Position numbers and translations under genes: made by a program
Shown: positions 19,296-41,062 of the stretch, piece by piece
How positions within the stretch are numbered: position 1 is the stretch's first letter
Layout: every line of letters starts with the position of its first letter
NCBI RefSeq assembly: GCF_003044305.1
Contig: NZ_PZOX01000005.1
Span: 195,493 to 259,492, forward strand
Direction of reading: 5' to 3'
Source: Vitiosangium sp. GDMCC 1.1324
Lineage (GTDB): Bacteria > Myxococcota > Myxococcia > Myxococcales > Myxococcaceae
DNA length: 64,000 bases
The notes under the pieces: generated by a model
The model's database searches: none
Told to the model about the DNA's origin: nothing
What the model saw: the letters and a program-made list of their open reading frames with translations, nothing else

Positions 19296-19406
19296 AGTCA
19301 TCACCTCGGCTGAAGTCACCCAGCCCCCCAGGGCAGGAGGGGAGTGTCGGGGGGCGCCCCCTCCTGTCGTGGTGGACGGATAGCCCCAGGTACGGAGGTT
19401 TCAACA

Positions 19407-24865: not shown

Positions 24866-27800
24866 TTGTATCCTTTGGAGATATTACCTTTGCGCCACAA
24901 ACAGTTTCGGCTCGCAATCGGTGGTGTTCTCGGTTTTCTCCTGGTAGCCATCTGGGCTGGCTATTCATGGAAGACCGAGCAAGGTGTAGGTCAGAGAACG
25001 CCCACCGAGAACATGCCGGAGCCGGTGCGGGCAACTCAGCACGAGGCCCATGGCGCCACGCCCTCAGGAGAGTTGTCATCTCTGGTGGGACAGCATGAGA
25101 CATACCAGGTGCACGCAACGGGAGCCACTTTCACTGTGACCCCCATCCGTCCACGTCAGCAGTCGCTAACCACGCCAGAACTGGTAATCGAAAGAGAGGA
25201 GGGAGCGCCCGCCACTTTCGAGACGATCGCGATGGAAAGAGGGGGGAATCCACTGGCCTTGACCGCTGGGCGTGGACGCGCCACGACTGACGGGGACTGG
25301 GTCATCGAGCGGGGGAGTGTCGTCGAGCAGGTGCGCCAGATGGAGAGGGGCGTTGAGCAAAGCTGGAATTTTGATCGCAAGCCCGCTGGGCGCGGTGGGC
25401 TCGTGGTTCACATCCGAGTCACGGGGCAGAAATACACGGAGTCTTCCCGGTATGGCTTGCATTTCGCGAGCGAGGGCAAGAAGACGGGTCTGCTCTATAG
25501 CCGGGCCACATGGGTGGATGCACGGGGCCGACGAACCCCCATCATGCCACGTTATGAGGGCGGGGAGATTCGCCTCGCTATCTCGAACGAGGTGCTCGAG
25601 TCTTCAGAGTACCCCGCCGTGCTGGATCCGATCATCTCGTCCGATTTCAAGATGGAGAACTCAGTATACCCGGCCATTTCCGGCGCCCAGACCAATCCGG
25701 CCGTGGCATTTGATCATGTGAACAAACATTACCTGGTCGTTTGGACCAACCAGCGCCCCACCACCGGGGCAGACATCTACGGCGCGTTGCTCAATACCGA
25801 CGGCACCCTCTTCAAGGGCGGCGTCGTCATCTCCAGTGCGAGTGGCGATCAGAGGAACCCCTCCGTCGCGTTTGACGGCAGCAACTTTCTCGTCGTCTGG
25901 GAGGACGAACGCAACCCCGCTTCCACGGACATCTATGGCGCACGGGTGGATGGAAACGGGGCTGTTCTAGATACTTCGGGCATTGTGCTGACCAGCGCCA
26001 CCAACAACCAGACCCTACCGAAAGTTGTCTTCAGGGGCTCCGATTCCGACTATCTTGTTGTCTGGCAAGATACACGCAACGTAAATCGGGATATCTATGG
26101 CACCCGGGTGAACGTGGCGGGCAATGTGTTGGACGGGAGCGGCGTTGCGCTTATCATGCGGCCTGGAGAACAAGGCCAACCAGCAATCGCCGTAGGGGCG
26201 ACCAACTCGTTCTTGGTGTGGGAGGACGGGAGCGGTTCTGCGACTTCGCATATCTATGGCGCCCTGCTGCCCGCGGGTAGCTTGACCTCCCTCTCCGCCT
26301 TCAATATTTGCCCAGGCCCTACAGCCAGCCAGATTACTCCCAGCGTTACATTCCACGTCGCCTCTGGGAACTATTTCGTGGTCTGGAGCGATACACGCAA
26401 CACGACGACCTCCAACGACATCTACGGAACCCGAGTAAACAGTGCCGGCACGGTATTGGATGCCTCCGGCTTCGCTATCTCCAACGCGCCGCTCGAACAG
26501 TTCGCGCCATCCATTGCCACTGCTGGGGACAGCCTTGTGGCAGTGTGGCAAGACGCACGTAACTCCATCGATAACGATATCTTCGGAAACCGGTTGCTCG
26601 GATCTGGCGGCGTACTGGATGGTTCGGGTTTTTCCATCTCCAGCAGCACGGATGAGCAAACCCCCGTAGTGAGCCCTGCCGTCACGGGCCAACAACTGGT
26701 GCTCTACAGCGCGCCGGACCCAAGCCTATCGATTCCACGCATCCGCGGTAGGCTCATTAGCAGGCAACCGCTGGGGAACACATGCAGCCTGAATCAGGAT
26801 TGTGCCTCTGGCTTCTGCGTGGACGGAGTGTGTTGCAACAGCGCCTGTGGAGGGAACTCTTCCGACGACTGCTTGGCCTGCAGCACTGTTACCGGGGCAA
26901 CGGCGAATGGAACGTGCACTGCCCGCCCGAACGGCGCTGCCTGTAGCGATGGCAATGCGTGCACAACCCCGGATACCTGCCAGGCAGGTGTCTGCACCGC
27001 AGGCACTCCTGCCACCTGTCCGGCCTCCGACCAGTGCCACGATGTGGGCACCTGCAACCCTGCCACGGGCACCTGCTCCAACCCCACCAAGCCCAATGGC
27101 TCTTCCTGCAGCGACGGCAATGCCTGTACTCGCACCGACACCTGCCAGGGCGGCACCTGTACCGGAGCTGCCCCTGTCACCTGTGCGGCCTCCGACCAGT
27201 GCCACGATGTGGGCACCTGCAACCCTGCCACGGGCACCTGCTCCAACCCCGCCAAGCCCAATGGCTCTTCCTGCAGCGACGGCAATGCCTGTACTCGCAC
27301 CGACACCTGCCAGGCAGGTACCTGCACCGCAAGCAGTCCTGTCACATGTACGGCCTCCGACCAGTGCCACGATGTGGGTACCTGCAACCCTGCCACGGGC
27401 ATCTGCTCCAACCCCGCCAAGCCCAATGGCTCTTCCTGCAGCGACGGCAATGCTTGTACTCGCACCGATACCTGCCAGGCAGGTACCTGCACCGCAGGCA
27501 CTCCTGCCACCTGTACGGCCTCCGACCAGTGCCACGATGTGGGTACCTGCAACCCTGCCACGGGCACCTGCTCCAACCCCGCCAAGCCCAATGGCTCTTC
27601 CTGCAGCGACGGCAATGCCTGTACTCGCACCGATACCTGCCAGGGCGGCACCTGTACCGGAGCTGCCCCTGTCACCTGTGCGGCCTCCGACCAGTGCCAC
27701 GATGTGGGCACCTGCAACCCTGCCACGGGCACCTGCTCCAACCCCGCCAAGCCCAATGGCTCTTCCTGCGACGATGGCAATACCTGCGCTCTCGCAGACA

Positions 27801-28204
27801 GCTGCCAAGCTGGAGTCTGCGTTGCCGGTACGGTGCGCCCCCCCGAGATATGTAACCTCGTGGACGACAACTGTGACGGCGCCGTCGACAACATCCCCGC
27901 TCTCACCTGCTCAACCAGAGAGTGTCGCGTTGGTACGAAATACTGCACGGCCCGTGGTGGCACCGCGTGCTCCTATACGGCCAACTCACGCAGCGGCACC
28001 CTGTGCAGCATCGGCTCGTGTAACGGCAAGGGCTCCTGCTGTGGCACGGTCCGCACTTATGTCGCTGCACGCTATGAGTACGAGATTCTCTTCTGGTACA
28101 GGCACTGTTCGGGTTGGCTGTGGTGGAGGAAGTGTACCTGGTACCCATTCTGGGGCTGGCGTTACTACCCGGCTCATTACGTCAATAAATACAAGTGCAT
28201 TTGA
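24866..28204 (+). CDS. Giant membrane-anchored/secreted protein. The N-terminal half has the same ~40-aa repeat family as the 19407 gene. The C-terminal half has 9 tandem Cys-rich modules (Myxococcus cysteine-rich repeat type) and a Trp-rich tail.
   Basis: The N-terminal TM helix is LAIGGVLGFLLVAIWAGYSW. Repeats such as NFLVVWEDERNPASTDIYGARVDGNGAVLDTSGIVLTS recur. The C-terminal modules read PNGSSCSDGNACTRTDTCQ(A/G)GTCT...TC.ASDQCHDVGTCNPATGTCSNPAK and occur 9 times. The tail reads WYRHCSGWLWWRKCTWYPFWGWRYY. Confidence 0.6.
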   Translation: MYPLEILPLRHKQFRLAIGGVLGFLLVAIWAGYSWKTEQGVGQRTPTENMPEPVRATQHEAHGATPSGELSSLVGQHETYQVHATGATFTVTPIRPRQQSLTTPELVIEREEGAPATFETIAMERGGNPLALTAGRGRATTDGDWVIERGSVVEQVRQMERGVEQSWNFDRKPAGRGGLVVHIRVTGQKYTESSRYGLHFASEGKKTGLLYSRATWVDARGRRTPIMPRYEGGEIRLAISNEVLESSEYPAVLDPIISSDFKMENSVYPAISGAQTNPAVAFDHVNKHYLVVWTNQRPTTGADIYGALLNTDGTLFKGGVVISSASGDQRNPSVAFDGSNFLVVWEDERNPASTDIYGARVDGNGAVLDTSGIVLTSATNNQTLPKVVFRGSDSDYLVVWQDTRNVNRDIYGTRVNVAGNVLDGSGVALIMRPGEQGQPAIAVGATNSFLVWEDGSGSATSHIYGALLPAGSLTSLSAFNICPGPTASQITPSVTFHVASGNYFVVWSDTRNTTTSNDIYGTRVNSAGTVLDASGFAISNAPLEQFAPSIATAGDSLVAVWQDARNSIDNDIFGNRLLGSGGVLDGSGFSISSSTDEQTPVVSPAVTGQQLVLYSAPDPSLSIPRIRGRLISRQPLGNTCSLNQDCASGFCVDGVCCNSACGGNSSDDCLACSTVTGATANGTCTARPNGAACSDGNACTTPDTCQAGVCTAGTPATCPASDQCHDVGTCNPATGTCSNPTKPNGSSCSDGNACTRTDTCQGGTCTGAAPVTCAASDQCHDVGTCNPATGTCSNPAKPNGSSCSDGNACTRTDTCQAGTCTASSPVTCTASDQCHDVGTCNPATGICSNPAKPNGSSCSDGNACTRTDTCQAGTCTAGTPATCTASDQCHDVGTCNPATGTCSNPAKPNGSSCSDGNACTRTDTCQGGTCTGAAPVTCAASDQCHDVGTCNPATGTCSNPAKPNGSSCDDGNTCALADSCQAGVCVAGTVRPPEICNLVDDNCDGAVDNIPALTCSTRECRVGTKYCTARGGTACSYTANSRSGTLCSIGSCNGKGSCCGTVRTYVAARYEYEILFWYRHCSGWLWWRKCTWYPFWGWRYYPAHYVNKYKCI
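26930..27800 (+). repeat. Near-identical tandem DNA repeats (~120-bp unit, alternating two variants, so ~240-bp periodicity) encoding the Cys-rich modules.
   Basis: Long stretches such as CTGCCACGGGCACCTGCTCCAACCCCGCCAAGCCCAATGGCTCTTCCTGCAGCGACGGCAATGCCTGTACTCGCACCGA recur almost perfectly. Confidence 0.7.
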
Positions 28205-28219
28205 TTCAGGTGATCCACC

Positions 28220-29368
28220 ATGGGTTTTGACCCGGAGAGCCGACACGTGAGGCCTCAGCAAATCAAATTCGTCAGTACACTGCTCCTGGCAGTAGCGGTC
28301 ATCGTCGTCGGGGCGCGGTGCCAGACTTCTTCTACCCCTCCCGAAAAGCCCGCGGAGCAGGAGGATGCGGGTGTTGTGCCAACAGACGGAGGAATCGCGG
28401 AACCGGATGGTGGCGAAGGGGACGCGGGAGAGGATCCGGACATGCCGCTGTCCTGCCCGGAGGAAACAACAGCATGCAAGACATCGTGTACCAACACCTC
28501 CTTGGACACCGAGAACTGCGGCACTTGTGGCACGCGTTGTAATGAGGACCAGGAGTGTATCCAAGGACAGTGCCTGGCTATGGGCTGCGCTCCCTTTCAG
28601 CAGGCATGCGCCACAGGGTGTACGGAGGTAGCGATCGATCCGGCCAACTGCGGCCAGTGCGGCAAAGCGTGCTCGGCGGAACAGGTGTGTGTGAATGGCC
28701 AGTGTGCTGAGCCCTCCGAGTGTCCTCCGCTGAGTGTGCTGTGTGGAGGCAAGTGCACACTGTTGAGTGAGGATCCAGCCAACTGCGGCCAGTGCGGCAA
28801 GGAATGCCCAGCGGGGCAGGGTTGCAGGGAGGGCGTGTGTGGGCCCATGACGGACTGCCCCGCCCCCGGAGTGTTCTGCAATGGGGTATGTACCGTGCTC
28901 GCCAAGGATCCGAACAACTGTGGCAAGTGCGGCAATACTTGCGAGCCTGGACGGACCTGCACCAACGGCAGTTGTGAGGCTCGCTGTCAGGCACCCGCAG
29001 TCGAATGCTCGGGGATATGCACCATTCTAGATGCCGACCCAAGCCACTGTGGTGCCTGCGGTAATGCATGTGGCAAGGGAATGTCCTGCAAGGGTGGCAA
29101 GTGCGAAGCGGGTTGCGAGCAAGGATGGGTCCTCTGCAATGGGGAGTGCACCGAGCTGGCCAATGACGCGCGGAACTGCGGCGCCTGTGGCAACTCGTGC
29201 GCTGCAAACGAGCATTGCGTGCAAGGGAGTTGCAGTGCCGGCTGTGGAGACGGGGGGACACTCTGTTCGAATGGATGTACCTCGGTGGAGTATGACCCGC
29301 AGAATTGCGGCACCTGCGGCAACGTGTGTCCGAGCGGCAAGAACTGTGTCCAAGGCAGTTGCCGTTGA
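28220..29368 (+). CDS. Secreted cysteine-rich repeat protein with about 9 tandem units of C.x.C....NCG.CG..C..G..C..G.C.
   Basis: There is an N-terminal hydrophobic signal. Units such as CKTSCTNTSLDTENCGTCGTRCNEDQECIQGQC and CTEVAIDPANCGQCGKACSAEQVCVNGQC recur. The protein ends in a Cys-rich module. Confidence 0.55.
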   Translation: MGFDPESRHVRPQQIKFVSTLLLAVAVIVVGARCQTSSTPPEKPAEQEDAGVVPTDGGIAEPDGGEGDAGEDPDMPLSCPEETTACKTSCTNTSLDTENCGTCGTRCNEDQECIQGQCLAMGCAPFQQACATGCTEVAIDPANCGQCGKACSAEQVCVNGQCAEPSECPPLSVLCGGKCTLLSEDPANCGQCGKECPAGQGCREGVCGPMTDCPAPGVFCNGVCTVLAKDPNNCGKCGNTCEPGRTCTNGSCEARCQAPAVECSGICTILDADPSHCGACGNACGKGMSCKGGKCEAGCEQGWVLCNGECTELANDARNCGACGNSCAANEHCVQGSCSAGCGDGGTLCSNGCTSVEYDPQNCGTCGNVCPSGKNCVQGSCR

Positions 29369-29657
29369 GCCTGCCCGCCGCACCTTGAATAATCGTGGGC
29401 TCGCCTCCTGACCTTGCGTGAGACTTCAGCCTCACCCAAGCGCCGGTGGCGAGCCCCGAGCCCACCTCCTCCTGGTGCAGTCGCCAGTGCTTGGCAGCGA
29501 GTTCCGGTGGTCACTTCCGTCCACCAGGTGGACACATGTGTCCACCTGGCCTCAAGAATGGACGTTTTCGTCCATCCCCCGCCAGCTTGCGACACAGGCT
29601 TGGTAGCCAACGGACGACCTCCAGGTTGCGTCGCTTGATTCCCAGATTCACATCGGT

Positions 29658-32600
29658 TTGTTCTTCCCGCCGATGCGAACCTCAGACTCCGACACGGCCC
29701 TGCCTGGCTTCGAGCGCAGTCTCGCCATCGTCATCGGTATCAACGCCTATTCCCACGGCATTCCCCCCCTCCACAACGCCGTGCGCGACGCCAACGCCGT
29801 CGCCGACTCCCTGGAGAGCCAGGGCTTCGAGGTGATCCGTCTCCTCGACTCCCAGGCAACCCTCTCATCCCTCTCCCTCCTGCTCTCCCATCACCTCCCC
29901 TCCCTTCCCTCGCCTGCCGATAGGATTCTCATCTACTTCGCCGGTCATGGCCTGGCCCATACCGACGAGCAGCACCAGTTCTCCGGGTTCCTGCTGCCCG
30001 CTGACGCTCGCCGCGACGACACCTCCTCCTACTGGCCCATGGCCGCCCTTCGCGACGCGCTGCGCCTGCTGCCCTGCCGCCACCTGCTGCTCATCCTCGA
30101 CTGCTGCTTCGCCGGGGCCTTCCCCCACTCCCCCTCGCGCGACATCCGCGCGCCCTCCCTCCCCGCGCCCCTCCACCTCGAGCGCTTCCGTCACTTCTCC
30201 TCCCGCCGCTCCTTCCAACTCCTTCTTTCCACCGCCCACGACGAGCTGGCCTCCGACAGGCTCCTGGCCAAATCCTCTCAGGAGTCCCTCGGCGACGGAC
30301 TCCACTCCCCCTTCGCCCTCGCGCTCCTCCAGGCCCTCCAACCCCATTCCCCCGCCGACTCCAATCAAGACGGCCTCCTCACCGCCGCCGAGCTCTACAC
30401 CTTCCTGCGCGACAGGCTCCTCTCCCTCGTCCCCTCCCACTGCCAGCAGACTCCCTCCCTCTGGCACCTGGACTGGCACGACGGAGGCGAGTTCCTCTTC
30501 CTCCTCTCCGACTCCCTCCCCTCCCTGCCTCCCGCCGCCCCGCTCTCCCAGCGCTCCAATCCCTACCTCGGCCTGCGCCCCTTCTCCTCCTCCCACCGCC
30601 ACCTCTTCTTCGGCCGAGAGCGCCTCGTCGACTCCCTCCTCGAGCGACTGAGGACCCAGCCCCTGCTGCTGCTGTGCGGCCCCTCCGGCGCGGGCAAGTC
30701 CAGCCTCGTCCATGCCGGCCTCCTTCCGAGCGTCTCCGAGGACCCCTCCTGGCGCGTCCCCCCATCCCTGCGCCCCTCGTCCCAGCCATTCCAGGCGCTG
30801 TCCTCCTGGCTCGCCTCGCTGGCTCCCAATACCGCGGCTCCCTCGGCCTCCGCCCTCGCCTCACGGCCCCGCGCCGCCGCCGACTTCCTCTCCTCCTTCC
30901 TCTCCCGCAACCCCGAGCGCGCTGTTCTCCTCGTCATCGACCCGCTCGAGGAGCTCGTCACCGCTTGCCTCGAGGACTCCGTGCGCCGCGCCTTCCTGCG
31001 CTCACTGTCCAGCCTCCTCCTGCTCTCGCACCCCCGGCTCCACCTGCTGCTGCTGCTGCGCTCGGACTTCGAGCCCCACTTCCTCTCCCTCCTCCAGGCC
31101 TCCGCCCTTCCCTCCGCACTCTGGCATGGCGCCCGTCTCAACCTCCCGCCCATGAACCGGGACGAGCTGCGCCGCTGCATCGAGAAGCCCGCGGAGTCCT
31201 GTGTCCTCTTCTTCTCCCCGGGCCTCGTCGAGCGCCTGTTGGATGACGTCGAGCAGATGCCCGGCGCCCTTCCCCTTCTCTCCGTAGCCCTCAGTGAGCT
31301 GTTCGGCGCCTACCTGGCCAGTGGCCGGGACGACCGCACCCTCTGCTTCGAGGACTACCACCACATTGGCGGTGGCATCGCGGGAGCGCTCCAGCGCCGG
31401 GCCGAGCTCGTCTTCTCCGGGCTGCCACCGCCCTCCACCGAAGGACAGCCCGCCCTGCCGCCTGTTCTCTCATCGGAGCTGCCCTCCTTCCAGCGCACCC
31501 TGCGCAACGTGCTGCTGCGCATGGTGTCTCCCGAAGGTGGCGAGCTGGCGCGCCGCAGGGTGCCGCGCGCCGAGCTGGAGTACCCCCACCACGAGGAGAA
31601 TTCCCGCGTCCTGCGTGTCCTGCGCACCCTGGAGGCCAGCCGTCTCGTGGTGGCCAGCGACGACGGAGGACCCTGTGTCGAGCCCGCTCACGATGCCTTG
31701 CTCTCCGCCTGGCCCAGGCTTCATGACTGGGCACGCCACGCTCAGCGCGAGCTACTCCTGCTGCGCCGTATCTCCCATGCCGCCTTCGAGTGGAACCGCC
31801 ACCATCGCGCAAGCGACTTCCTCTGGGCGGACGCGCGATTGGATCAGCTCGGTCTGGCGCTGACCTCCCCGCGCCGCACCGACGAGCCTCTCGCATTGCC
31901 CACCGTTTCACCTGGGGGCCAACCCACTGAGCCCTTGGCGCTCAACGCCGCGGAGAGTGGATTCCTCCGCGCCAGCGCGACACGCCGGCGCTTGCTGCGC
32001 ACCCGCCGCGGCGTGCTCGCTCTTACGTTGGCCATGATGCTCGTTGCGCTCACCGTGGCCGCCCTCTTCCAGGCCAACAAAGCTAACTTCAATGCCAGGG
32101 AAGCCCAGCGCCAGCAGCGCGCCGCCGAAGCCAGCGCGGAAGAGGCACGCAAGCAGAAGGAGGCCGCCGAGGCCAACGCCAGGGAGGCCCAGAAGCAGCA
32201 GCGCATCGCCGGCCTCAACGCCAAGGAAGCCCAGCGGCAGCAACAAGCAGCCGAGGCCAACCTCGAGGAGGCTCGAAAGCAACAAGAAGCCGCTGATGCC
32301 AACGCCCGAGAGGCGCTGCGACAGCAGAGGGTTGCCGAGGCCAATGCCACGGAGGCTCAGCGGCAAAAGCAGTTCGCCGACGCGAACGCCCAGGAAGCCC
32401 TGAAACAGAAGAATACCTCCGAGGCCAATGCCAGGGAGGCTCGCAAGCAACAGGAGGCCGCCGAAGCCAACTTCATGGAGGCTCAGCGGCAAAAGCAGTT
32501 TGCCGACGCGAACGCCCAGGAAGCCCTGAAACAGAAGAACACCTCCGAGACCAATGCCAGGGAGGCTCGCAAGCAACAGGAGGCCGCCGAAGCCAACTTC

Positions 32601-34835
32601 ATGGAGACTCAGCGGCAAAAGCAGCTCGCCGACGACAACGCCTTGGAAGCCCGCAAGCAGCAAGAATCCGCCGAGGCCAACTTCAGGGAGGCTCGCAAAC
32701 AACAGGAGGCCGCCGACGCGAGCGCCAGTGAGGCCCAGCGACAAAAAGAAGCCGCTGAGCTCAACCTCCAGGAGGCGCGAAGACAACAGCAGATCGCTGA
32801 CACCAATGCCAGGGAGACCTTGGAGCAAAAGAATGCCGCTGAAGCCAATGCCAAGGAAGCGCGCAAGCAACAAGAAGCAGCCATCGCCAGTGCCAGGGAA
32901 GCTCAGAAACAAAAGGACCTGGTCCTGGCCAGCGCGCGGGTCAAACAAGTAGACATGCTCATTGAGGAGGATCCCACCAAGGCACTTCTGGTGCTCCTCG
33001 AGGCAAGCCCTCAGATCGAATCCTGGGGCAACCCATGGCACCAGGTTGCCCTGGCTCTCAGTCAACACGCCATCAGCAGCGCCATCCTGTCCGGGCACAA
33101 GGACACTGTATTCACAGCGCTCTTCAGTTCCGACGGCTCCCGCGTCCTCACTGCCTCCGCGGATGGCACCGCTCGCATCTGGCGTACCGACGGCACCGGG
33201 GCGCCTCTCATCCTCTCGGGCCATTCCGGAAATGTGACCTCCGCCACCTTCAGCCCCGACGGCTCCCGCGTCCTCACTGCCTCTGAGGATAACACCGCTC
33301 GCATCTGGCGTACCAACGGCAAAGGGAAACCTGTCATCCTCTCGGGCCATACCGATACAGTGAATTCCGCCACCTTCAGCCCCGACGGTTCCCACGTCCT
33401 CACTGCCTCTGTGGATGGCACCGCTCGCATCTGGCACATAGACGGCAAGGGCGAGCCTCTCATCCTCTCGGGCCATAAAGATGCAGTCAGATTCGCCACC
33501 TTCAGCCCCGACGGCTCGCTCGTCCTCACTGCCTCTTGGGATGGCACCGCTCGCATCTGGCGCATCGACGCCCCGGAGGAACCCATCATCCTCTCAGGCC
33601 ATACCAATGCAATATACAACGCCACCTTCAGCCCCGACGCATCCCTCGTCCTCACCGCCTCTTTGGATGGTACTGCTCGCATCTGGCACACGGACGGCGC
33701 GAAGGCGCCCTGCATCTTCACAGGCCATCCCATCGACCTGACGTCCACCACCCTCAGCCCCGACGGCTCCCACATTGTCATTGCCAATGCGGATGGCACC
33801 GCTCACATCTGGCGCACCAATGGAACGGGGGAGCCTGTCCTTCTCTCAGGCCATACCAATGGGCTGAATTCCGCCACCTTCAGCCCCGACGGCGCCCTCG
33901 TCCTCACCGCCTCTTTGGATGGTACTGCTCGCATCTGGCGCACCGATGGTACGGGGGAGCCTATCCTCCTGTCGGGCCATACCGATGGACTGAATTCCGC
34001 CACCTTCAGCCCCGACGGCTCCCTCGTCGTCACTGCCTCTTGGGATGGCACAGCTCGCATCTGGCGCACCGACGGCAAGGGCGAGCCTCTCATCCTCTGG
34101 GGCCATACCGACAATGTGGCTTCCGCCGTCTTCAGCCCCGACGGATCCCTCGTCGTCACTGCCTCTTGGGATGGCACCGCTCGCATCTGGCGCACCGACG
34201 GCAAGGGTGAGCCCGTCAGCCTCTCAGGTCATTCCAATGCAGTGAATTCCGCCACCTTCAGCCCCGACGGATCTCGCGTCCTTACTGCCTCCGTGGATGG
34301 CACCGCTCGCATCTGGCGCACCGACGGCAAGGGCGAGCCTCTCATCCTCTCAAGCAGTGACGATGAAGTGAATTCCGCCACCTTCAGTCCCGATGGTTCC
34401 CGCGTGCTCACTGTCTCCGAGGATGGCACCGCCCGCCTCTGGCACACTGACAGCACGAAAGAACTCTTCATCCTAGCGGACCATGGCACGGCAGTGACTT
34501 CCGCCGCGTTCAGCCCCGACGGATCCAGCGTGCTCACAGTCTTTACGGATGGCACCGCTCGCATCTGGCGTGTGGATGAGCAGAGTCGTCCCCTCATTCT
34601 GCGGCAGCAAGGGCGTGCGTTGGTCCTTCCAGACGGCTCGGGCGTCGTGACCTTGAGCGAAAATGGGCTGGTTTACATCTGGCCTATAGAGCCCCACACG
34701 CTGATCACCTCTTTTTTGAATGCCACGACGGCGTGCCTCTCCATTAACGAACGCGTGAACTACCTCTTCGAGTCTCCGGATGAGGCACACAAAGGCCATG
34801 AACGTTGCGAGCGCTTCCATGGCCGGCGTCCCTGA
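29658..34835 (+). CDS. Giant caspase-like (peptidase C14) - STAND P-loop NTPase - coiled-coil - WD40 (about 14 blades/repeats) protein.
   Basis: The caspase region reads SLAIVIGINAYSHG...ILIYFAGHGLAH...LLLILDCCFAGAF (His/Cys dyad). The NTPase region has GRERLVDSLLERL...LLLCGPSGAGKSSLVHAGL (Walker A). The coiled-coil section is built from EANAREA(Q/R)KQQ(E/R)AAEAN heptad/11-mer repeats. The WD40 units are (L/V)TAS.DGTARIWRTDG.GEP.ILSGH...V.SATFSPDGS. Confidence 0.75.
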   Translation: MFFPPMRTSDSDTALPGFERSLAIVIGINAYSHGIPPLHNAVRDANAVADSLESQGFEVIRLLDSQATLSSLSLLLSHHLPSLPSPADRILIYFAGHGLAHTDEQHQFSGFLLPADARRDDTSSYWPMAALRDALRLLPCRHLLLILDCCFAGAFPHSPSRDIRAPSLPAPLHLERFRHFSSRRSFQLLLSTAHDELASDRLLAKSSQESLGDGLHSPFALALLQALQPHSPADSNQDGLLTAAELYTFLRDRLLSLVPSHCQQTPSLWHLDWHDGGEFLFLLSDSLPSLPPAAPLSQRSNPYLGLRPFSSSHRHLFFGRERLVDSLLERLRTQPLLLLCGPSGAGKSSLVHAGLLPSVSEDPSWRVPPSLRPSSQPFQALSSWLASLAPNTAAPSASALASRPRAAADFLSSFLSRNPERAVLLVIDPLEELVTACLEDSVRRAFLRSLSSLLLLSHPRLHLLLLLRSDFEPHFLSLLQASALPSALWHGARLNLPPMNRDELRRCIEKPAESCVLFFSPGLVERLLDDVEQMPGALPLLSVALSELFGAYLASGRDDRTLCFEDYHHIGGGIAGALQRRAELVFSGLPPPSTEGQPALPPVLSSELPSFQRTLRNVLLRMVSPEGGELARRRVPRAELEYPHHEENSRVLRVLRTLEASRLVVASDDGGPCVEPAHDALLSAWPRLHDWARHAQRELLLLRRISHAAFEWNRHHRASDFLWADARLDQLGLALTSPRRTDEPLALPTVSPGGQPTEPLALNAAESGFLRASATRRRLLRTRRGVLALTLAMMLVALTVAALFQANKANFNAREAQRQQRAAEASAEEARKQKEAAEANAREAQKQQRIAGLNAKEAQRQQQAAEANLEEARKQQEAADANAREALRQQRVAEANATEAQRQKQFADANAQEALKQKNTSEANAREARKQQEAAEANFMEAQRQKQFADANAQEALKQKNTSETNAREARKQQEAAEANFMETQRQKQLADDNALEARKQQESAEANFREARKQQEAADASASEAQRQKEAAELNLQEARRQQQIADTNARETLEQKNAAEANAKEARKQQEAAIASAREAQKQKDLVLASARVKQVDMLIEEDPTKALLVLLEASPQIESWGNPWHQVALALSQHAISSAILSGHKDTVFTALFSSDGSRVLTASADGTARIWRTDGTGAPLILSGHSGNVTSATFSPDGSRVLTASEDNTARIWRTNGKGKPVILSGHTDTVNSATFSPDGSHVLTASVDGTARIWHIDGKGEPLILSGHKDAVRFATFSPDGSLVLTASWDGTARIWRIDAPEEPIILSGHTNAIYNATFSPDASLVLTASLDGTARIWHTDGAKAPCIFTGHPIDLTSTTLSPDGSHIVIANADGTAHIWRTNGTGEPVLLSGHTNGLNSATFSPDGALVLTASLDGTARIWRTDGTGEPILLSGHTDGLNSATFSPDGSLVVTASWDGTARIWRTDGKGEPLILWGHTDNVASAVFSPDGSLVVTASWDGTARIWRTDGKGEPVSLSGHSNAVNSATFSPDGSRVLTASVDGTARIWRTDGKGEPLILSSSDDEVNSATFSPDGSRVLTVSEDGTARLWHTDSTKELFILADHGTAVTSAAFSPDGSSVLTVFTDGTARIWRVDEQSRPLILRQQGRALVLPDGSGVVTLSENGLVYIWPIEPHTLITSFLNATTACLSINERVNYLFESPDEAHKGHERCERFHGRRP
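33060..34600 (+). repeat. Tandem ~126-bp DNA repeats encoding WD40 blades, preceded by an 11-codon coiled-coil repeat tract (32090-32900).
   Basis: Recurrent CACCTTCAGCCCCGACGG...CGCTCGCATCTGGCGCACCGACGGCAAGGGCGAGCCTCTCATCCTCTC blocks are visible directly in the sequence. Confidence 0.7.
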
Positions 34836-34949
34836 TCTCCTCTCAAGCAGATGGAACAACAGCGTCCGTTCATAGCCTTCGTTGAGCTGTGAGCCTGCCC
34901 CGGTTTTGTGGACACACCTCATAAGTCGGCTACACGGGAGGTAGTGTTC

Positions 34950-35480
34950 ATGGAGCGAAGGAAGAGGCGGAGTTTCACCCTGGAGTTCAGGGCCGATGCG
35001 GTCCGGCTGGTGCGTGAGGGCGGCAAGAGCTTGCCTCAGGTGGCAAAGGACCTGGACCTGACCGAGTCGGCCCTGCGCAACTGGGTACGCGAGACCGACG
35101 GCGACAAGGGCAAGGAGCCGGCAGGCGCGCTCTCCACGGCCGAGCGGGAGGAGTTGGTCAGGCTGCGCAAGGAAGTGCGCCATCTGGAGATGGAGCGTGA
35201 CTTCTTAAAAAAGCGGCGGCCTTCTTCGCGAAGGAGACCTCGAAGTGAAATTCGAGTTCATCGAGGCGGAGAAGGCTCATTTTCCCGTGGATTTCATGTG
35301 CCAGCAGTTGGGCGTCTCGCGCTCGGGCTACTATGCTTCACCAGAATCGGTGCTCGACATGCCCGGAATGCCTGCTCGGCTTCCCCGGAACGGCTGCTCA
35401 CCTTCCTCCGGAATCGCTGCTCGGCTTGGCCCGGAATCGGTGCTCGGCATGCCCCGGAACACGCACGCCTGAGCCGGGCC
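34950..35480 (+). mobile_element. Truncated IS3-family element. OrfA (HTH transposase subunit) is intact. The OrfB N-terminus is present after an A6G slippery site and then degenerates into short tandem repeats.
   Basis: OrfA reads MERRKRRSFTLEFRADAVRLVREGGKSLPQVAKDLDLTESALRNWV (IS3 OrfA HTH). The frameshift motif TTAAAAAAG lies at ~35207-35215. The OrfB start reads VKFEFIEAEKAHFPVDFMCQQLGVSRSGYYA and is then lost. It is followed by about 4 copies of a CCGGAATCG(G/C)TGCTCGGC-like 17-18-bp repeat (35330-35470). Confidence 0.55.
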
Positions 35481-36521
35481 GTCGGAGCGGCACTCCCTGC
35501 CGTGCGGGCCCCGCCCTCCTGGGCTTGCGCACTACCTCACCCGTCATGGCTTGACCCGAACCTGCTGGGTGATGGGCCACTCCACGCCCCTACGGTTCCT
35601 CCCATCATCCAGTCGGTCCGATTTCGGGCCGATCTCTCCCATCTACGCTGCGCGGTAACACCCATGCACGGCAGATAGGCGGAGTGCCAGAGTGCTTGGC
35701 GCCGTGCAGCAACCGTCCGAAGTGCCGACGCCTCGGAACGGCGCGGTTGCTCGGGCAGAGGGCCCTGAGGATGCATAGGCCGCGAAGTGGGCAAGGCGGG
35801 CAGACCCCGGGGGCTGTAGCTGCGTCCGCCGTGTGCCGTGCCGGTCAGCTGACGCGGTGCGAACGGGGGGCCTCGGACTGCTTCGAGGTGGCGCATGCAG
35901 TGGCGCCCCCTCCTGCGGCTGTTGTTGCTGCGTCGTGCGGCTGCGGATACGCGGCGGCCGTGGAGCCCTTGTCCGAGCGCACTTCCTGACGTGGCGGCTA
36001 CACCACGACTCGCCGATGGGCGCGCGAAACGTCCTCCTCCCCGTTTTCCGCGAAGCGTCGCGCCAGCTCGGCCGCACCTTTCGCGCCGCGCTTCGACACG
36101 TACTCCAGCTCGGCGGGTAGCAGGGCCTTGATGGCGGCGAGCCGCACATCGCCAAATGGCGTGGGGAACTGCCTCGGCCGGGTGCGCGACTCCACGCCAA
36201 GCAGCACGCCCACCCGGCCCTCCGGGATAACGAGGGACTCCGGAATGCCGTTCCCCTCCACCTCCAGCGCGAGGACGCCCGCCTTCGCTCCCTCGCGCAC
36301 ATGCTCGTGGACCACCACCTCCCTGGAGACCCGCTTCAGCAGCAGGTAGGGCCAGCTTCGCCCGATGACGTCAAGGGGGAAGCTCCGTCCCCTGCGTCTC
36401 CAAAGCGAGCTCCAGGCCAGAGCCCACCGAGGGCTCCAGACGGGCAAAGAGGGGGTCCGAGGGCAACACATGACCAGGTGGCGTGTGTGGTTGGACTCAC
36501 CAGCCCTAGGAATCAGGTTGG

Positions 36522-37924
36522 GTGTGCCCCGCTATCGCAGCTATCCGGATTTGTCGGAGGTGCCCGGTAGAGTGGGAGCACCTAACGGAGGCGCCGATGA
36601 CTCCCACGCTGCTGGTGTTGCTGCTGCTCACCCAAGCGGAAGCGCCTGACAACCCTCCGGCAGGGGCCCTGGAGCCTCCGGAGTCGGCTTCGCTGGCTGA
36701 AACGTGGCGCTACCTCGCGCGCGTGGATGCCTCGGGACTGGCGCTGCTGTCGCGGGCTGGAGTGGGCACCGAGGAGGGCTTCGTCCAGGTGGAGCCCACG
36801 CTGATTCTCGACGGGGGCGAGGAACTGGGCGTCAACCTGGGTGCTCCCGTGCGACTGCGCCTGGGGCGCGGCGGTGAGGGCGCGGGCCTCGTTCGCCGCG
36901 AGGACTGGGACAGCCTCTCGGATTGGGGGCAGCTCGTGCGCGGCCTCAAGCTGGGCTCGGACAGCGCGCCCGTGGCGCTATGGGTGGGCGGACTCGAGTC
37001 CTACAGCCTCCTCTCGGGGCACCTCATCCGCCGCTACTCCAACCGCACCAACCCGGACTACCACCCGGCGGGCGCATTCCTCACCGGCACGCTGGGCCCG
37101 GTGTACTCCGAGGCCTTCGCCTCCGACGTGCTGGGCGCGCGCCTCATGGGCGCGGAGGTGGCGCTCGACGTGCAGCACCTCCTCTTCGGCCAGCCCAAGG
37201 AGCGCGGACGCTACACGCTCGCGGTGTCGGCCGTGCATGACTGGGGCAGGGCCGAGGGGCGGACTTCCCCGGTGACGCTGGCACACGTGAACGGGACGGC
37301 AGTGGTGGTGGTGCGCCCGGGCTTCGAGGCGCACGTGCTCGCCGGCTGGGGGGACGGCCGGGCGTGGGTGGCGCGTGGGGCACAGTGGTGGGAGCGGGCG
37401 CGGATGCAGTGACGCCCACGCTGGACATGACGCTGCGGCTGGAAGTGCGCAGGCAGCACGGCGGCTTCCGCCAGGGCTATGTCGGCCCGGACTACGAGCT
37501 GGCGCGCTTCCGGGCCGCGGGCCCCGAGGGCGTGCCGCTGGCCGAGGCGCGCTTCCCGGACGGCTTCTCCGCCTACGGCGAGGCGGTAGTGGGCTGGGAT
37601 GCCGTGCGCTACGGCGGGCTGTGGAAGCAGTTGCAGCTTTCGCTCGCCGCCGAGACCTTCACCTGGGGCCGCTTCGACGTGGACGGGCGCGTGGCGGTGC
37701 AGCTCTTCGACCGCAACCTCGAGGTGGCGGTAAAAGGGCTGGCGGTGGGCCTGGGGCAACCCGGGGCACGCTACCTGGGCGACGCCGAGGTGCGCTGGCG
37801 CCTCTTCGGCGGGCGCCTATATGCGCTGGGCACGGGCGGCACGCTGCTGTTTCCGGAAGGGATGGGCACGCTGCGGCCGGGGGCCTTCGCCTCCGTGGGC
37901 CTGGGGGTGGACAATGCGCGCTGA
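36522..37924 (+). pseudogene. Secreted hypothetical protein split into two overlapping frames (36522..37412 and 37364..37924). The probable frameshift lies near a G6 homopolymer, so this is either a genuine pseudogene or a homopolymer sequencing error.
   Basis: The signal peptide is MTPTLLVLLLLTQAEAPD. Both frames show coding-like GC3 bias and overlap at 37364-37412. The G6 run CTGGGGGGAC lies at ~37346-37355. Confidence 0.4.
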
Positions 37925-39455
37925 CTCGCACCGCGCCTCGTGGGCAGGCCTGCTGCTCGCCCTGGCGCTGCTGTCCACCGGCTGTGCCTCGCTGACGCAA
38001 CCTTCCGTCGAGAGGACGAGCTTGCGCTACGCACCGCGCGAGGCCGCAGGGCCCACCTCAGTCCAGGAGCAAGACGGCGATTCGCCACGCACCTCCGGCT
38101 CCATACTGCCCTCCCCTTCCGTGTCCACTGCACCCGAGCGGCTGCACCGGCGCCGGGCCCCTCGCGTGGAAGTGACGGCGGTGGGCCCGGACAGCGCGGA
38201 GAGGAAGGCGAGGCAGGAGGCCCTCGCGGCCCAACTGGCGTTTCGAGGGGCCCTGCGCGAGGTGTCCGGCTCCACCCACCGCGCCTCCGCCGAGCTCGCC
38301 CGGCTCAAGGCCAGTGGGAGAGGACTCTCGGGCATGCATGCCGAGCTCTTCGTGCGCTTCATCGACTTCGGCACCGAGCAGGGGCGGTGGATGGACGCCC
38401 AGCTCGCCGCCGCCACCCGCCTGGCCGACGCCGCCTCGGAGGTGGACGACCCGGACATGCAGATCGCCCTGCTGAGCATGGCGGGCCCCCGGCTGGAGGC
38501 CGCCATGCTCGGCTCGCTCCTGCTCGCCGCCTGGCTCGACTGCCTGCACCTCGTGGATGCCCTGCTCGACCAGTCCCTCCACAGCGTGGAGAGGATGCGC
38601 CGCGACCTGATGGACTGGCAGGGAATGCTCGAGCCCTCCCTGCGGGCGCTCTCCTCTCTGGAGCCGGACCAGGTGGAGGCCGCGGCGCAAGACGCCCCCG
38701 CCCTGGTGGGCCACCTCTCGGACGCGCTCGCCGCCACAGTTACCAATGTGCGCAAGGGGGTGGAGCTCACCGGGAAGGTGCTGGTGCTCAGAGACATCCT
38801 CCTGTCGCTTCCCCTGGCGCTGGAAGCGCCCCTGCTGGCGTCCGAGGCACCGTCAGCCCCGGCGCTGCTCGGCGCGGGCCTGACGGTGGGTGGCGGCGGA
38901 GTGACGATGGGCACGCGCCTTGTCGTCTCCGCCGAATGGGTGGAGATGATGCGGCAGTTGGTACGCGCGGGTGTCCTCTCGCTGCCCGCCGTCGGTGCCG
39001 CCGTTCGGATTCACGCGGGCGGGGTGATGCTGGCGCAGGCGCATGACGAGTTGCCGCAAGGCGTACGCGAGGCGCTCGGGGACGGGCCCGAGGTGCGGGC
39101 CATGCGCGTGACGGGCAAGACGGGGGCAGGCATGGCCGAGCCGCCGCGGCACCACGTCATGCCCGAGGAGTTCCGCGAGTGGTTCGAGAAGCGCGGCTTG
39201 ACAGGCGAGATGGATATCAACGGGTTCTGCGTCGAGCTGGAGCTGGCACACCACCAAGCCATTCACGGTGGTGGAAACTGGAAGCTGGGGCGCAAATGGA
39301 GCGGTGAATGGAACCGGATGATTATGAAGGTGCTACTCGACGCCGAGAGCAAGGCCGGTCGGATGTTGACGCGCAACACGATCCTGGAGATCGTCGCGAG
39401 TTATATGACGTTGTACGACATCCCGATGAACTTCGTCCGCTGTCGTGGGAGATGA
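37914..39455 (+). CDS. Lipoprotein with a conserved C-terminal toxin-like module; a SitA-like polymorphic lipoprotein toxin candidate.
   Basis: The lipobox is MRADSHRASWAGLLLALALLSTGCASL. The C-terminal ~110 aa read HHVMPEEFREWFEKRG...ELAHHQAIHGGGNWKLGRKWSGEWNRM, a His-rich nuclease-like module. A small cytoplasmic ORF follows with a 3-nt gap. Confidence 0.45.
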   Translation: MRADSHRASWAGLLLALALLSTGCASLTQPSVERTSLRYAPREAAGPTSVQEQDGDSPRTSGSILPSPSVSTAPERLHRRRAPRVEVTAVGPDSAERKARQEALAAQLAFRGALREVSGSTHRASAELARLKASGRGLSGMHAELFVRFIDFGTEQGRWMDAQLAAATRLADAASEVDDPDMQIALLSMAGPRLEAAMLGSLLLAAWLDCLHLVDALLDQSLHSVERMRRDLMDWQGMLEPSLRALSSLEPDQVEAAAQDAPALVGHLSDALAATVTNVRKGVELTGKVLVLRDILLSLPLALEAPLLASEAPSAPALLGAGLTVGGGGVTMGTRLVVSAEWVEMMRQLVRAGVLSLPAVGAAVRIHAGGVMLAQAHDELPQGVREALGDGPEVRAMRVTGKTGAGMAEPPRHHVMPEEFREWFEKRGLTGEMDINGFCVELELAHHQAIHGGGNWKLGRKWSGEWNRMIMKVLLDAESKAGRMLTRNTILEIVASYMTLYDIPMNFVRCRGR

Positions 39456-39458
39456 GCA

Positions 39459-39929
39459 ATGACCGACGGACGTTCCTGGGAGGGTAACTGGAAGGTGCGC
39501 CTGTACGAGCGGGTCCGCGAGCGGGGCTACGATTCACTCACCGCCTTCGCCGAGGCGCGCCCGACCGCTTCGCTGGTGGCGCTGGCCGAGGAGCTTGGTC
39601 CGGACGACATCGCGGGAGTGCAGGTGTTCAGTGGACTGCTGGCCGAAGCGGAGCGGAAGAATCAGGTCACGCGGCTAGTGCGCGGTCAGCTCGTTCGCGA
39701 GCTGGCCGAAGCACTCCCCAACGGCTGGCCGCCCGTGCTGGACGACGCAAACCGCCTAAAGGTTGCCGTCGCACTCGCCCGTTGGGGAACCTTCACCCCA
39801 GAAACTCATGAGCAGCGCGTCGACAAAGCCGGCGATTCACTCCTCGCCAAGCCACCGCCCGCCGGTTGGCGCCCGCTCGGCCCCGACGACGAGTTGCTGC
39901 TAACGCTTCTGCCCGACAAAGAAGCCTGA
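39459..39929 (+). CDS. Small cytoplasmic protein, an immunity-protein candidate for the upstream lipoprotein toxin.
   Basis: The 156-aa ORF starts 3 nt after the stop of the 37914 gene. It has no signal peptide and shows tight coupling typical of toxin/immunity pairs. Confidence 0.4.
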   Translation: MTDGRSWEGNWKVRLYERVRERGYDSLTAFAEARPTASLVALAEELGPDDIAGVQVFSGLLAEAERKNQVTRLVRGQLVRELAEALPNGWPPVLDDANRLKVAVALARWGTFTPETHEQRVDKAGDSLLAKPPPAGWRPLGPDDELLLTLLPDKEA

Positions 39930-40009
39930 ACCTCCCCTGCTCCTCCATGAGTGAGTACGTGGGATGAGACAGGGGCTCGGGCGAGCCCAGCGGACACGGC
40001 AGGCGACCA

Positions 40010-40951
40010 CTACTGAGGAAACGTCACGTTGCCGAGGGTGACGGAGCGCTGGCGCTCCGCGTCCCACAAGACGAGGGTGTAGGAGCCCCGCGCCTCCTTC
40101 TCCGTAGCTATTAGCTCCACCACGACGCGTCCCAGCTCGCCCTTCACTCCTGGCGCGGCCGGGAGGATGGGCTCGATCGGCCAGAGCGGGAGCGGCTTCA
40201 ATATTTCGCCTTTAGGCCCGCGAAGCACCGCGCCCGCCGCCGTCCAGGGCACCGTGCCCGGATTCAGGAGGGACACCTCCACCGCCACCCGCTCCTTGGC
40301 GCGGTAGCTGGTGACGGAGCGCTTGACGAGAGCATTACCTTCCTTCGCCGTGACGTCCCACGTCAGTTCCTTGAGGGAAATACCCCGCCTGCCGTCCACG
40401 AGACCGGAGGCGATGGCACCGCGCAAGCCGTCCGGCACGGCGCGCTCGGCGCGGAGTTGCTTCACCTCCGCCCGGCATTGCTGGACATTGGCCTCGGCAT
40501 CCTCCGCCACCTGCTGGAAGTAGGCTGCCGGGCGCACCTGACGCAGCACCTTCACCTCCTGCATGCCGAGCCCGGGGTGCACGATGAGCTCGAAGCTGGT
40601 GCATGCCGGTGCGGCTTCGTCGGCGAAGCACACCTCCACGTTGGTCCGTTTCCCAGCGACGAGATTGTCGCGAGGAACCAGCGTGAAGGTCTGCTGCCCC
40701 GATGACCAATCCTCGAACCACCCCCGGTCCTCAAGCTTTAGGGACTGCTGCTTGAGCTGCGAGTCGAAACGGAAGGTGATGGGCAGGCCCGGGCCGATAC
40801 ACACCACGGGCGGATTCCTGCCATGGGTGGCGGAAAGCTCGATGCGCGGGCTCGCCGCCTCGCACTCGTCGGTGGACGTAGCTGCGGACACGTCAGCGGG
40901 GGTGGACGCGAGAGCCAGCGCCAAGAGGCCGGCAGGGAAAGCGGGGAGCAC
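40010..40951 (-). CDS. Secreted DUF2381 / TIGR02268-like protein (Myxococcus paralogous family found next to Ser/Thr kinase genes).
   Basis: The signal peptide is MLPAFPAGLLALALASTPADVSA. It lies immediately downstream of, and on the same strand as, the 741-aa kinase. The family assignment is from memory of the conserved arrangement and is not alignment-verified. Confidence 0.5.
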   Translation of the reverse strand: MLPAFPAGLLALALASTPADVSAATSTDECEAASPRIELSATHGRNPPVVCIGPGLPITFRFDSQLKQQSLKLEDRGWFEDWSSGQQTFTLVPRDNLVAGKRTNVEVCFADEAAPACTSFELIVHPGLGMQEVKVLRQVRPAAYFQQVAEDAEANVQQCRAEVKQLRAERAVPDGLRGAIASGLVDGRRGISLKELTWDVTAKEGNALVKRSVTSYRAKERVAVEVSLLNPGTVPWTAAGAVLRGPKGEILKPLPLWPIEPILPAAPGVKGELGRVVVELIATEKEARGSYTLVLWDAERQRSVTLGNVTFPQ

Positions 40952-41062
40952 GGACGGTCAACCTCCAGGGAGGCGCGGGGAGTCGCCCCGGGAGGAGGGG
41001 CCTCTACCACACCTCCGTGCCCGAAATGCCCGGGGCGCGGCCTGCAAAGCCCACGCACGTCT

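Follow-up and report, generated by a model that had tools for sequence, protein, structure and literature searches.

The closest described counterparts of the gene analysed in this study are the cyanobacterial orthocaspases in which a caspase-like domain, an NTPase, a transmembrane (TM) helix and WD40 repeats follow one another (e.g. Ava_0039, Ava_3079 and GEI7407_1667; PMC7475262). These proteins are now annotated as 'caspase family protein / nSTAND1 domain-containing NTPase'. The gene in question lies on the + strand of a 64,000-nucleotide stretch of the Vitiosangium sp. GDMCC 1.1324 genome (contig NZ_PZOX01000005.1; the whole stretch is hereafter called the window) and encodes the same domain order. 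The cyanobacterial proteins likewise have the TM helix ~427 amino acids (aa) after Walker A, are 37-46% identical to the window protein over the first 800 aa, and carry, in their WD40-type tails, the same C-terminal cap with a pair of Cys residues. The segment between the TM helix and the first WD40 blade, however, measures ~35-175 aa in the sampled cyanobacterial WD40-type members and is a ~290-aa stalk in the window and Archangiaceae proteins. On the basis of these and the following features, we consider it reasonably probable that the gene product is a receptor of the caspase-nSTAND1 family that crosses the inner membrane once. An extracellular WD40 domain combined with a cytoplasmic p20 domain was proposed by Bhattacharjee and Mishra (2020) for six cyanobacterial orthocaspases (PMC7475262), and membrane helices in metacaspases were recorded by Asplund-Samuelsson et al. 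(2012; PMC3501461). The topology idea itself is therefore not new, having already been proposed for the cyanobacterial orthocaspase-TM-WD40 proteins.

WRAP of Nostoc punctiforme Npun_R6612 (2ymu) resembles the window protein in that tandem propellers of 42-residue units are attached to a STAND NTPase and in that the blades resemble one another far more closely than WD40 blades normally do. The 14 blades of WRAP differ by 10 point mutations in all, without any synonymous difference (PMC9218822), whereas the window protein has 12+1 blades with a proportion of synonymous differences (pS) of 0.24-0.35. The WRAP host protein has no caspase domain, and its cited description mentions no membrane helix (PMC9218822). 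Apaf-1 and the bacterial Apaf-1-like caspase-STAND-WD40 proteins (PMC13581612) likewise combine a STAND nucleotide-binding oligomerization domain (NOD), tandem beta-propellers and a caspase-family output. Apaf-1, however, contains an AP-ATPase/NB-ARC module and recruits its caspase via a CARD, while the window protein contains nSTAND1 and a fused caspase domain. In Apaf-1, sensor and NOD share one compartment and the propellers clamp the NOD intramolecularly; in the window protein a predicted TM helix separates the two, and such a clamp would be impossible if the predicted topology holds.

In fungi, the HNWD/HET-E NLRs are cytosolic NACHT proteins with concertedly evolving WD40 repeats that are usually >85% identical. 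The window protein shares with HNWD/HET-E (see also PMC13449251) the similar units, the variable repeat number, the top-face variability and the exchange of interior units within the array; it differs in having older blades and a predicted membrane-spanning topology. STAND sensors diversified by diversity-generating retroelements (DGRs) differ in fold, since DGRs target the C-type-lectin fold and the sensor here is WD40; no reverse transcriptase domain was found among the scanned neighbouring genes, the whole window not having been searched for it. The EACC1 two-gene conflict system (Kaur et al. 2020) was considered and set aside. There is no 5' EACC1 partner, no plausible small membrane-protein open reading frame (ORF) being present in 29369-29657, and the EACC1-type caspase model NF047832 gave 70.7 bits against a cut-off of 140.

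A search among 8000 scored candidates gave 1362 homologous proteins at E <= 1e-5. They belong mostly to filamentous cyanobacteria and Archangiaceae myxobacteria, which agrees with the originally predicted link to bacteria with complex life cycles. Members also occur in Chloroflexota and Acidobacteriota. A link of caspase-STAND-repeat proteins to multicellular bacteria has been reported (PMC7159879, PMC8195603). The family is patchily spread, often with many paralogues per genome; the tails are WD40, FGE-sulfatase or coiled-coil, and copies are often truncated or broken. The gene is thus unexceptional within an abundant family that was already known.

Domain layout and predicted membrane topology

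The ORF list and the translation gave a single uninterrupted + strand frame at 29658-34835 with a TTG start and 1725 codons, the coordinates and the length being those of the original prediction. Since the intact orthologues start 15-16 aa ahead of a GFERS motif and the ATG at 29673 lines up with their N-termini, this ATG was taken as the start and seems likelier to be the true one than the TTG at 29658. The caspase-STAND-WD40 architecture given in the original prediction was also borne out (Table 1). Pfam assigned Peptidase_C14 (PF00656) to aa 20-254 with 63.5 bits (gathering threshold, GA, 21.4), followed by nSTAND1 and by WD40 units with a 126-bp period. The caspase residues His97, within YFAGHG, and Cys150, within LDCCFAG, were invariant in an alignment of 55 homologues, and so were the G/K/S of Walker A and the D/E/E of Walker B. 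The NTPase at aa 302-719 matched nSTAND1 (PF20703) with 308-315 bits, the best match of 314.9 bits covering model positions 1-378 of 379. The runner-up models were the generic AAA_16 (34.4 bits), nSTAND6 (24.5 bits) and NACHT (PF05729), which at 20.9 bits fell below its GA of 26.7; the NB-ARC hidden Markov model gave no match even at E <= 10, the resemblance to AP-ATPases being confined to a distant likeness in fold. The ATPase is therefore of the nSTAND1 class, a clade named by Kaur et al. (2021; PMC8195603), and is neither NACHT nor AP-ATPase, the two classes between which the original prediction had left the choice.

An AlphaFold2 (AF2) model of aa 6-791, with the 55-homologue alignment as input, had a predicted local distance difference test score (pLDDT) of 85.6 and a predicted template modelling score (pTM) of 0.81. 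In Foldseek, its caspase part, which has the caspase/haemoglobinase fold, matched MALT1, GSU0716 and caspase-7/9 (E down to 9e-9). For its NTPase part, alignments of 416-491 columns were obtained with PAB2304, Apaf-1-ADP and the NRC4 resistosome. The STAND-type succession of nucleotide-binding, helical and winged-helix modules is present in this confident model. A PDB sequence search with the N-terminal half gave P-loop-level or chance matches only and no sequence-related solved structure. Proteolysis by the caspase-like domain and NTP-dependent oligomerization of nSTAND1 are the predicted activities.

Between the NTPase and the repeats lies a predicted TM helix that the original prediction had missed. 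The segment at aa 785-805, GVLALTLAMMLVALTVAALFQ, contains the 19-mer of highest hydropathy in the protein (Kyte-Doolittle 2.61); the 15 residues ahead of the segment include 7 Arg, against 3 Lys or Arg after it. An equivalent hydrophobic 19-mer was found in 91 of the 101 sufficiently long homologues, ~427 aa past Walker A. In these homologues, the Lys and Arg residues in the 15 positions before and after the helix number 5.7 and 2.5 on average, respectively, and the excess lies before the helix in 91/91. No N-terminal signal peptide was found in the protein, and the helix is therefore regarded as a signal anchor. The caspase and the NTPase are thereby predicted to be cytoplasmic, and everything past residue 805 to be outside, with stalk and propeller in the periplasm. 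Two weaker clues agree with this location. Only 3 Cys occur among the 920 outer residues, and two of them make a C-x23-C pair in the C-terminal cap, to which Pfam gave no match. The myxobacterial orthologues have a similar C-x(18-30)-C tail, and so do 11 of the 27 WD40-type homologues, cyanobacterial ones included.

Two further observations concern the coding region. A 522-codon antisense ORF at 31908-33476 (- strand), over the stalk and the first blades, was rejected as a gene, all domain evidence being on the + strand; it is most likely an artefact of high G+C content and repeat composition. The caspase/NTPase coding part (30001-32000) shows by far the strongest strand asymmetry in the window (GC skew -0.30, AT skew -0.25), probably reflecting a composition rich in Leu, Pro and Ser.

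The stalk and the WD40 blades

Tandem Repeats Finder (TRF) reported two arrays in the gene, both far beyond chance. The stalk array has a 42-bp period (32121-32904, 18.7 copies) with a 126-bp higher-order repeat at 90% matches. In the protein, aa 806-1097 form 20 in-register units of 14 aa without a single indel (consensus QEAAEANAREAQKQ), in place of the 11-codon coiled-coil repeat that had been predicted. Positions 4 (Ala/Ser), 7 (Asn/Ser), 10 (Glu), 11 (Ala/Thr) and 14 (Gln) of the unit are nearly invariant, position 7 being Asn in 17 of the 20 units. The mean DNA identity between units is 64%, and it rises to 72% for units three apart. The blocks 32367-32492 and 32493-32618 agree at 122 of 126 positions, and this pair is the only truly near-identical repeat within the gene.

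The 14-residue stalk was found only in myxobacterial (Archangiaceae) orthologues; other family members have shorter helical or coiled-coil segments past the TM helix. Pfam contained nothing for the stalk, and a PDB sequence search gave no relative of it. As a continuous helix, the stalk would extend over ~43 nm (at 1.5 Å per residue). Periplasm-spanning helical stalks rich in Ala, Glu and Lys are known from TolA domain II and similar proteins. The window protein resembles TolA domain II in having a long Ala-rich charged helix right after a predicted N-in membrane anchor, but its stalk differs in the strict 14-residue register, in the Asn at position 7 and in the lack of Pfam or PDB homology. 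A 'tolA' CDD match is on record for one cyanobacterial orthocaspase (PMC7475262). The Archangiaceae-specific expansion of the 14-residue stalk, with its recent three-unit duplication, is modestly new.

The blade array has a 126-bp period (33122-34570, 11.5 copies, 79% matches, score 1490). It comprises 12 canonical 42-aa WD40 units (aa 1142-1645), corresponding to 12 Pfam WD40 stretches, and one degenerate unit of 34 aa; the D-H-S-W tetrad is complete in 9/12 units. The original prediction had counted 14 units that are near-identical at the DNA level. The pairwise DNA identity of the blades was found to be 60-89% (mean 75%), with third codon positions the least alike (70%), and the protein identity of the 12 units is 38-86% (mean 64%, median 66.7%). 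By the definition of Pereira and Lupas (2022), a median blade identity above 60% (PMC9218822), the propeller is therefore highly repetitive. The 'HR' class of Hu et al. (2017) is defined by an internal identity >= 0.7 over 8 contiguous repeats (PMC5587647), and the best run of 8 units here gave 0.68, i.e. 'moderately repetitive', by a metric that only approximates theirs. A single-sequence AF2 model of the propeller region (pLDDT 69.7) showed 13 blade sets, and its best PDB match was 2ymu (WRAP; E 2e-36, 33% identity), followed by Apaf-1 and other tandem propellers. Judging from this model of moderate confidence, the 13 blades may form a tandem (double) propeller; a particular division between the propellers is not claimed.

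Recent amplification would have left few or no synonymous differences between the blades. The pS between blades was 0.35 when all units were taken together and 0.24 when only the framework codons of the interior units were counted, and the pS between the window gene and its orthologues was 0.33 for an Archangium sp. metagenome-assembled genome (MAG; 89% aa identity) and 0.40 for Archangium gephyra. Since these values are comparable, the blades appear to be about as old as the species splits, and the description 'recently amplified' is not supported. The other half of the original prediction, concerted turnover of the blades, fared better, as repeat counts vary and interior blades match their own array. 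For annotation, the lesson is that blades which are moderately repetitive and old do not prove ongoing hypervariation by their similarity alone.

Repeat counts were compared among species-level relatives, no protein or contig match being above 89% identity; the closest database matches came from a JGI metagenome contig and from a truncated contig of an Archangium sp. MAG. Our locus handles are given in brackets. A. gephyra (L006) has a stalk of ~18 units and 15 blades that are more alike than those of the window (83% TRF matches). Cystobacter fuscus has 15 blades in both copies, with ~19 stalk units and well-differentiated blades in copy 1 (L013) and ~2 stalk units in copy 2 (L004). In an Archangiaceae MAG (L002), the tandem-repeat count gave ~4-5 stalk units, while ~280 aa still align with the window stalk, and at least 6 weak blade matches were found. 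A Logan contig (L001) has ~1 unit and 8 blades. An intact soil metagenome orthologue (L082; 72% identity, same Cys-pair cap) has a long, diverged stalk and ~14 differentiated blades by translation (10 weak DNA matches). The range among the relatives is ~1-20 stalk units and ~8-15 blades, and that close relatives naturally differ so much in both counts is also modestly new.

Four blades pair across species between the window and A. gephyra, namely WIN_01/L006_01 (83%), WIN_04/L006_07, WIN_11/L006_14 and WIN_12/L006_15. The remaining interior blades have their best partner inside their own array (88-89% for the window array, 90% for that of A. gephyra). Orthologous edge blades combined with array-specific interior ones are the classic signature of unequal exchange with array edges that escape homogenization.

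The most variable blade columns are 7, 8, 9, 11 and 27, with further variation at 21 and 39-41. The first five map to the top face, where they occupy the D-A loop, the beginning of strand A and the position just before the Asp of the B-C turn. The ratio of nonsynonymous to synonymous proportions (pN/pS) was 1.21 at these five columns vs 0.42 elsewhere, a contrast that is suggestive and not a test, as the columns were picked after seeing the data. The same top-face variability has been described for repetitive WD40 proteins generally by Hu et al. (PMC5587647).

Several copies in relatives deserve mention as observations in their own right. The orthologues in C. fuscus (NCWS; L004 and L013) and A. 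gephyra (PVMSAZ; L006) are split into 2-4 frames; in L006, for example, a single base pair is missing from the fourth blade unit. They were not called pseudogenes: single contigs of 11-12 Mb suggest long-read assemblies, and the breaks could be sequencing errors or real decay. In another contig (L081; JGI 3300055006, protein P0004; 84% DNA and 88% protein identity), the protein begins inside the NTPase and is thus without caspase and P-loop; the stalk has full length, and the blades are the first, one interior and the last plus the degenerate one (3+1). P0004 was set aside as firm proof of blade contraction, since the metagenome contig is short and could result from assembly collapse or chimerism.

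Receptor reading and its alternatives

The most economical mechanism for such a receptor would be ligand-driven clustering through stalk and membrane helix; topology, nature of the ligand, oligomerization and outcome are all what we infer, and what we observed are the domains, the conserved catalytic and Walker residues, the membrane helix with its charge bias across the family, and the repeats with their differences between relatives. The N-terminal 784 residues, with the caspase-like protease and the nSTAND1 NTPase, would remain in the cytoplasm, and the signal anchor would send the remaining ~920 residues, i.e. the stalk, the neck, the 13-blade propeller and the Cys-pair cap, into the periplasm. 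Candidate ligands, all located outside the cytoplasm, are components of phages or competitors, surface molecules of other cells and products of envelope damage. The ligand would bind the variable top face of the propeller and would cluster or re-orient the receptors via the stalk and the helix. Clustering would permit NTP-dependent oligomerization of nSTAND1 and then proximity activation of the caspase domains. The activated caspase might cleave cytoplasmic targets, leading to growth arrest, death or a signalling cleavage. The phyletic pattern suggests cell death (PMC7159879), while the conserved two-component and exported-protein neighbours hint at signalling. Both repeat arrays would evolve by unequal recombination, the interior blades being duplicated or homogenized in each lineage and the stalk units being gained in blocks of three, at a pace comparable to speciation and not faster.

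It is worth weighing this reading against the original one, a soluble cytoplasmic Apaf-1-like apoptosis ATPase whose propellers sense an intracellular ligand and fold back on the NTPase. The order of protease, STAND and WD40 does parallel Apaf-1, the models of propeller and NOD match Apaf-1 structures, and the nSTAND1 literature assumes intracellular sensing. A soluble protein, however, has to be reconciled with a very hydrophobic 21-residue helix that bears a family-wide positive-inside signature and with a rigid ~290-aa helical repeat, both located between the NOD and the sensor, and also with the conserved Cys pair at the far C-terminus. The conserved helix between the NTPase and the stalk and propeller makes a cytoplasmic sensor improbable in our judgement. 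Since sensor and NOD would be in different compartments, Apaf-1-style autoinhibition could not apply to the membrane receptor. An entirely different possibility, to which we give hardly any weight, is that the gene is a decaying or non-functional relic with slipping repeats, in which the similarity of the blades has no adaptive meaning. Insertion sequence (IS) elements flank the window copy, and several relatives are split by frameshifts or are without caspase and P-loop, although the frameshifts may be sequencing errors in assemblies of single 11-12 Mb contigs. The window copy itself is one intact 5.2-kb frame with all catalytic and Walker residues kept, and the framework blade pN/pS of 0.37-0.42 and the tetrad complete in most units both point to purifying selection.

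The membrane-spanning layout could also serve a non-immune role, as a receptor for social or developmental cues (kin or prey contact, envelope stress) with the caspase as a signalling protease. This would fit the histidine kinase, the sigma-54 regulator and the large exported repeat protein that adjoin the gene both in the window and in A. gephyra, a gene that is chromosomal and syntenic and not island-borne, and the lack of a PADLOC match. The patchy spread, the many paralogues, the varied sensor tails and the broken copies, on the other hand, are the pattern of conflict systems (PMC7159879), and we regard the social role as rather unlikely.

Several points weigh against the receptor reading that we prefer. 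The predicted topology is taken only from hydropathy and charge bias, and the papers that defined nSTAND1 treat the C-terminal sensors as intracellular (PMC8195603). A ~43-nm rod probably exceeds the width of the periplasm, so that the stalk would have to tilt, fold back or bundle; since stalk length varies over 1-20 units, a fixed 'ruler' function is not implied. The 13 blades do not fit the usual 7+7 split. A pN/pS near 1 on five pre-selected columns could reflect relaxed constraint instead of positive selection. As for an immune role, a search of aa 1-1041 in PADLOC-DB 2.0 at E <= 0.01 gave no match, and none of the adjacent genes was recognized as a known defence gene.

We would only tentatively extend the receptor reading to most of the caspase-nSTAND1 family, as 'outside-in' NLR-like receptors with a cytoplasmic switch and protease, a periplasmic propeller and, between them, a stalk changing its length by 14-residue units. 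If this extension is true, there would be no STAND fold-back autoinhibition; the signal would pass through one membrane helix by clustering, and stalk length would set the place in the envelope that is sampled, from the membrane surface to the outer-membrane side. If the topology is true, sensing by bacterial STAND/NLR-like switches would not be confined to the cell interior, as this family of >1,300 homologues would demonstrate, and the coupling of an extracytoplasmic propeller to a cytoplasmic caspase would amount to death-receptor logic built from apoptosome parts. The Archangiaceae copies, which differ naturally in stalk length and blade number, could serve as a series for studying signal transmission.

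Features and neighbouring genes

Table 1. Features of the caspase-nSTAND1 gene and of its surroundings, in window coordinates
Feature	Position	Strand	Evidence and remarks
Histidine kinase (GAF + HATPase_c)	15346-17694		88% identity to A. gephyra copy
NtrC-type sigma-54 response regulator	17691-19163		88% identity to A. gephyra copy
1029-aa exported repeat protein	19344-22433		80% identity to A. gephyra copy
DDE_5 transposase, apparently intact, 415 aa	22593-23840		173 bits; left edge of 7.2-kb insert
1112-aa Cys-rich paralogue of the exported repeat protein	24866-28204		inside 7.2-kb insert
Cys-rich Stig1-repeat protein with N-terminal hydrophobic anchor	28220-29368	+	Pfam Stig1, 134 bits; 57 Cys in 382 aa; in insert
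Whole gene, caspase-nSTAND1-TM-stalk-WD40	29673-34835	+	ORF list, translation, orthologue N-termini
Caspase-like Peptidase_C14 domain (His97, 29946-29948; Cys150, 30105-30107)	29715-30419	+	Pfam, homologue alignment, AF2
nSTAND1 NTPase module (Walker A GPSGAGKSS, 30678-30704; Walker B LLVIDPLEEL, 30927-30956)	30561-31814	+	PF20703, alignment, Foldseek
Predicted single TM helix GVLALTLAMMLVALTVAALFQ, RRRLLRTRRG just before	32010-32072	+	hydropathy, homologues
Alpha-helical stalk, 20 x 14 aa, consensus QEAAEANAREAQKQ, ~290 aa	32073-32948	+	TRF, register check
Newest duplication in the gene, two neighbouring 126-bp (3 x 14 aa) stalk blocks	32367-32618	+	TRF, block comparison
Neck joining stalk to propeller	32949-33080	+	kept in myxobacterial orthologues; helical in AF2 (low confidence)
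12 canonical WD40 units, 42 aa / 126 bp each	33081-34592	+	Pfam, TRF, unit matrix, nhmmer
Degenerate 13th blade LILRQQGRALVLPDGSGVVTLSENGLVYIWPIEP	34593-34694	+	sequence; three more strands in AF2 (low confidence); kept in P0004
C-terminal helical cap with conserved Cys1693 and Cys1717	34695-34832	+	myxobacterial and some WD40-type homologues
IS3-family OrfA remnant, HTH_Tnp_1 only	34950-35177 (domain); 34908-35678 (ORF)	+	Pfam, 50.3 bits

The G+C content of the window is ~69%, and the region of 20-36 kb is lower, at 0.59-0.64 in most bins. In a synteny comparison, the three upstream genes (histidine kinase, response regulator and exported repeat protein) were found to precede the orthologue directly in A. 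gephyra as well, and the position of the kinase/regulator pair is also kept in an Archangiaceae MAG (60-63% identity). A regulatory link between these two-component genes and the STAND gene is possible. Since the three genes are common to A. gephyra, the locus is ancestral, chromosomal and syntenic, and no imported island.

Between the exported repeat protein gene and the STAND gene lies a 7.2-kb insert of lower G+C content, absent in A. gephyra, and the downstream flank past the IS3 remnant has no similarity to A. gephyra. The accessory hotspot that had been predicted at this place thus holds for the upstream insert and the downstream flank, which bear insertions or rearrangements, but not for the gene, whose position is syntenic. 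The Cys-rich protein upstream and the IS3 remnant downstream, which had been cited as markers of the hotspot, were both found; the former is the Stig1-repeat protein, and the ORFs around the latter hold no rve domain to complete an IS3 element.

A perfect 26-bp palindrome, composed of CCAGGTGGACACA and TGTGTCCACCTGG, lies at 29524-29549, ~125 bp ahead of the probable start codon. No second copy exists in the window, and 80 related loci are without it; an operator site is one possibility, a leftover of the neighbouring insertion another. The two paralogous repeat proteins upstream are 38-42% identical and contain repeated 'FLVVW...DIYGARV' units with weak DUF3659 matches. The protein at 19344-22433 has a lipoprotein-like N-terminus and only 3 Cys, and the one at 24866-28204 has 67 Cys. 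Downstream, a 23-bp tandem repeat (35335-35459, 5.5 copies, 73% matches) is located inside the read-through tail of the OrfA ORF. Genes for a Ser/Thr protein kinase, a DUF2380 lipoprotein-like protein and a DUF2381 protein follow at 37821-43288; in keeping with an assignment to Archangiaceae, these paralogous families are typical of myxobacteria.

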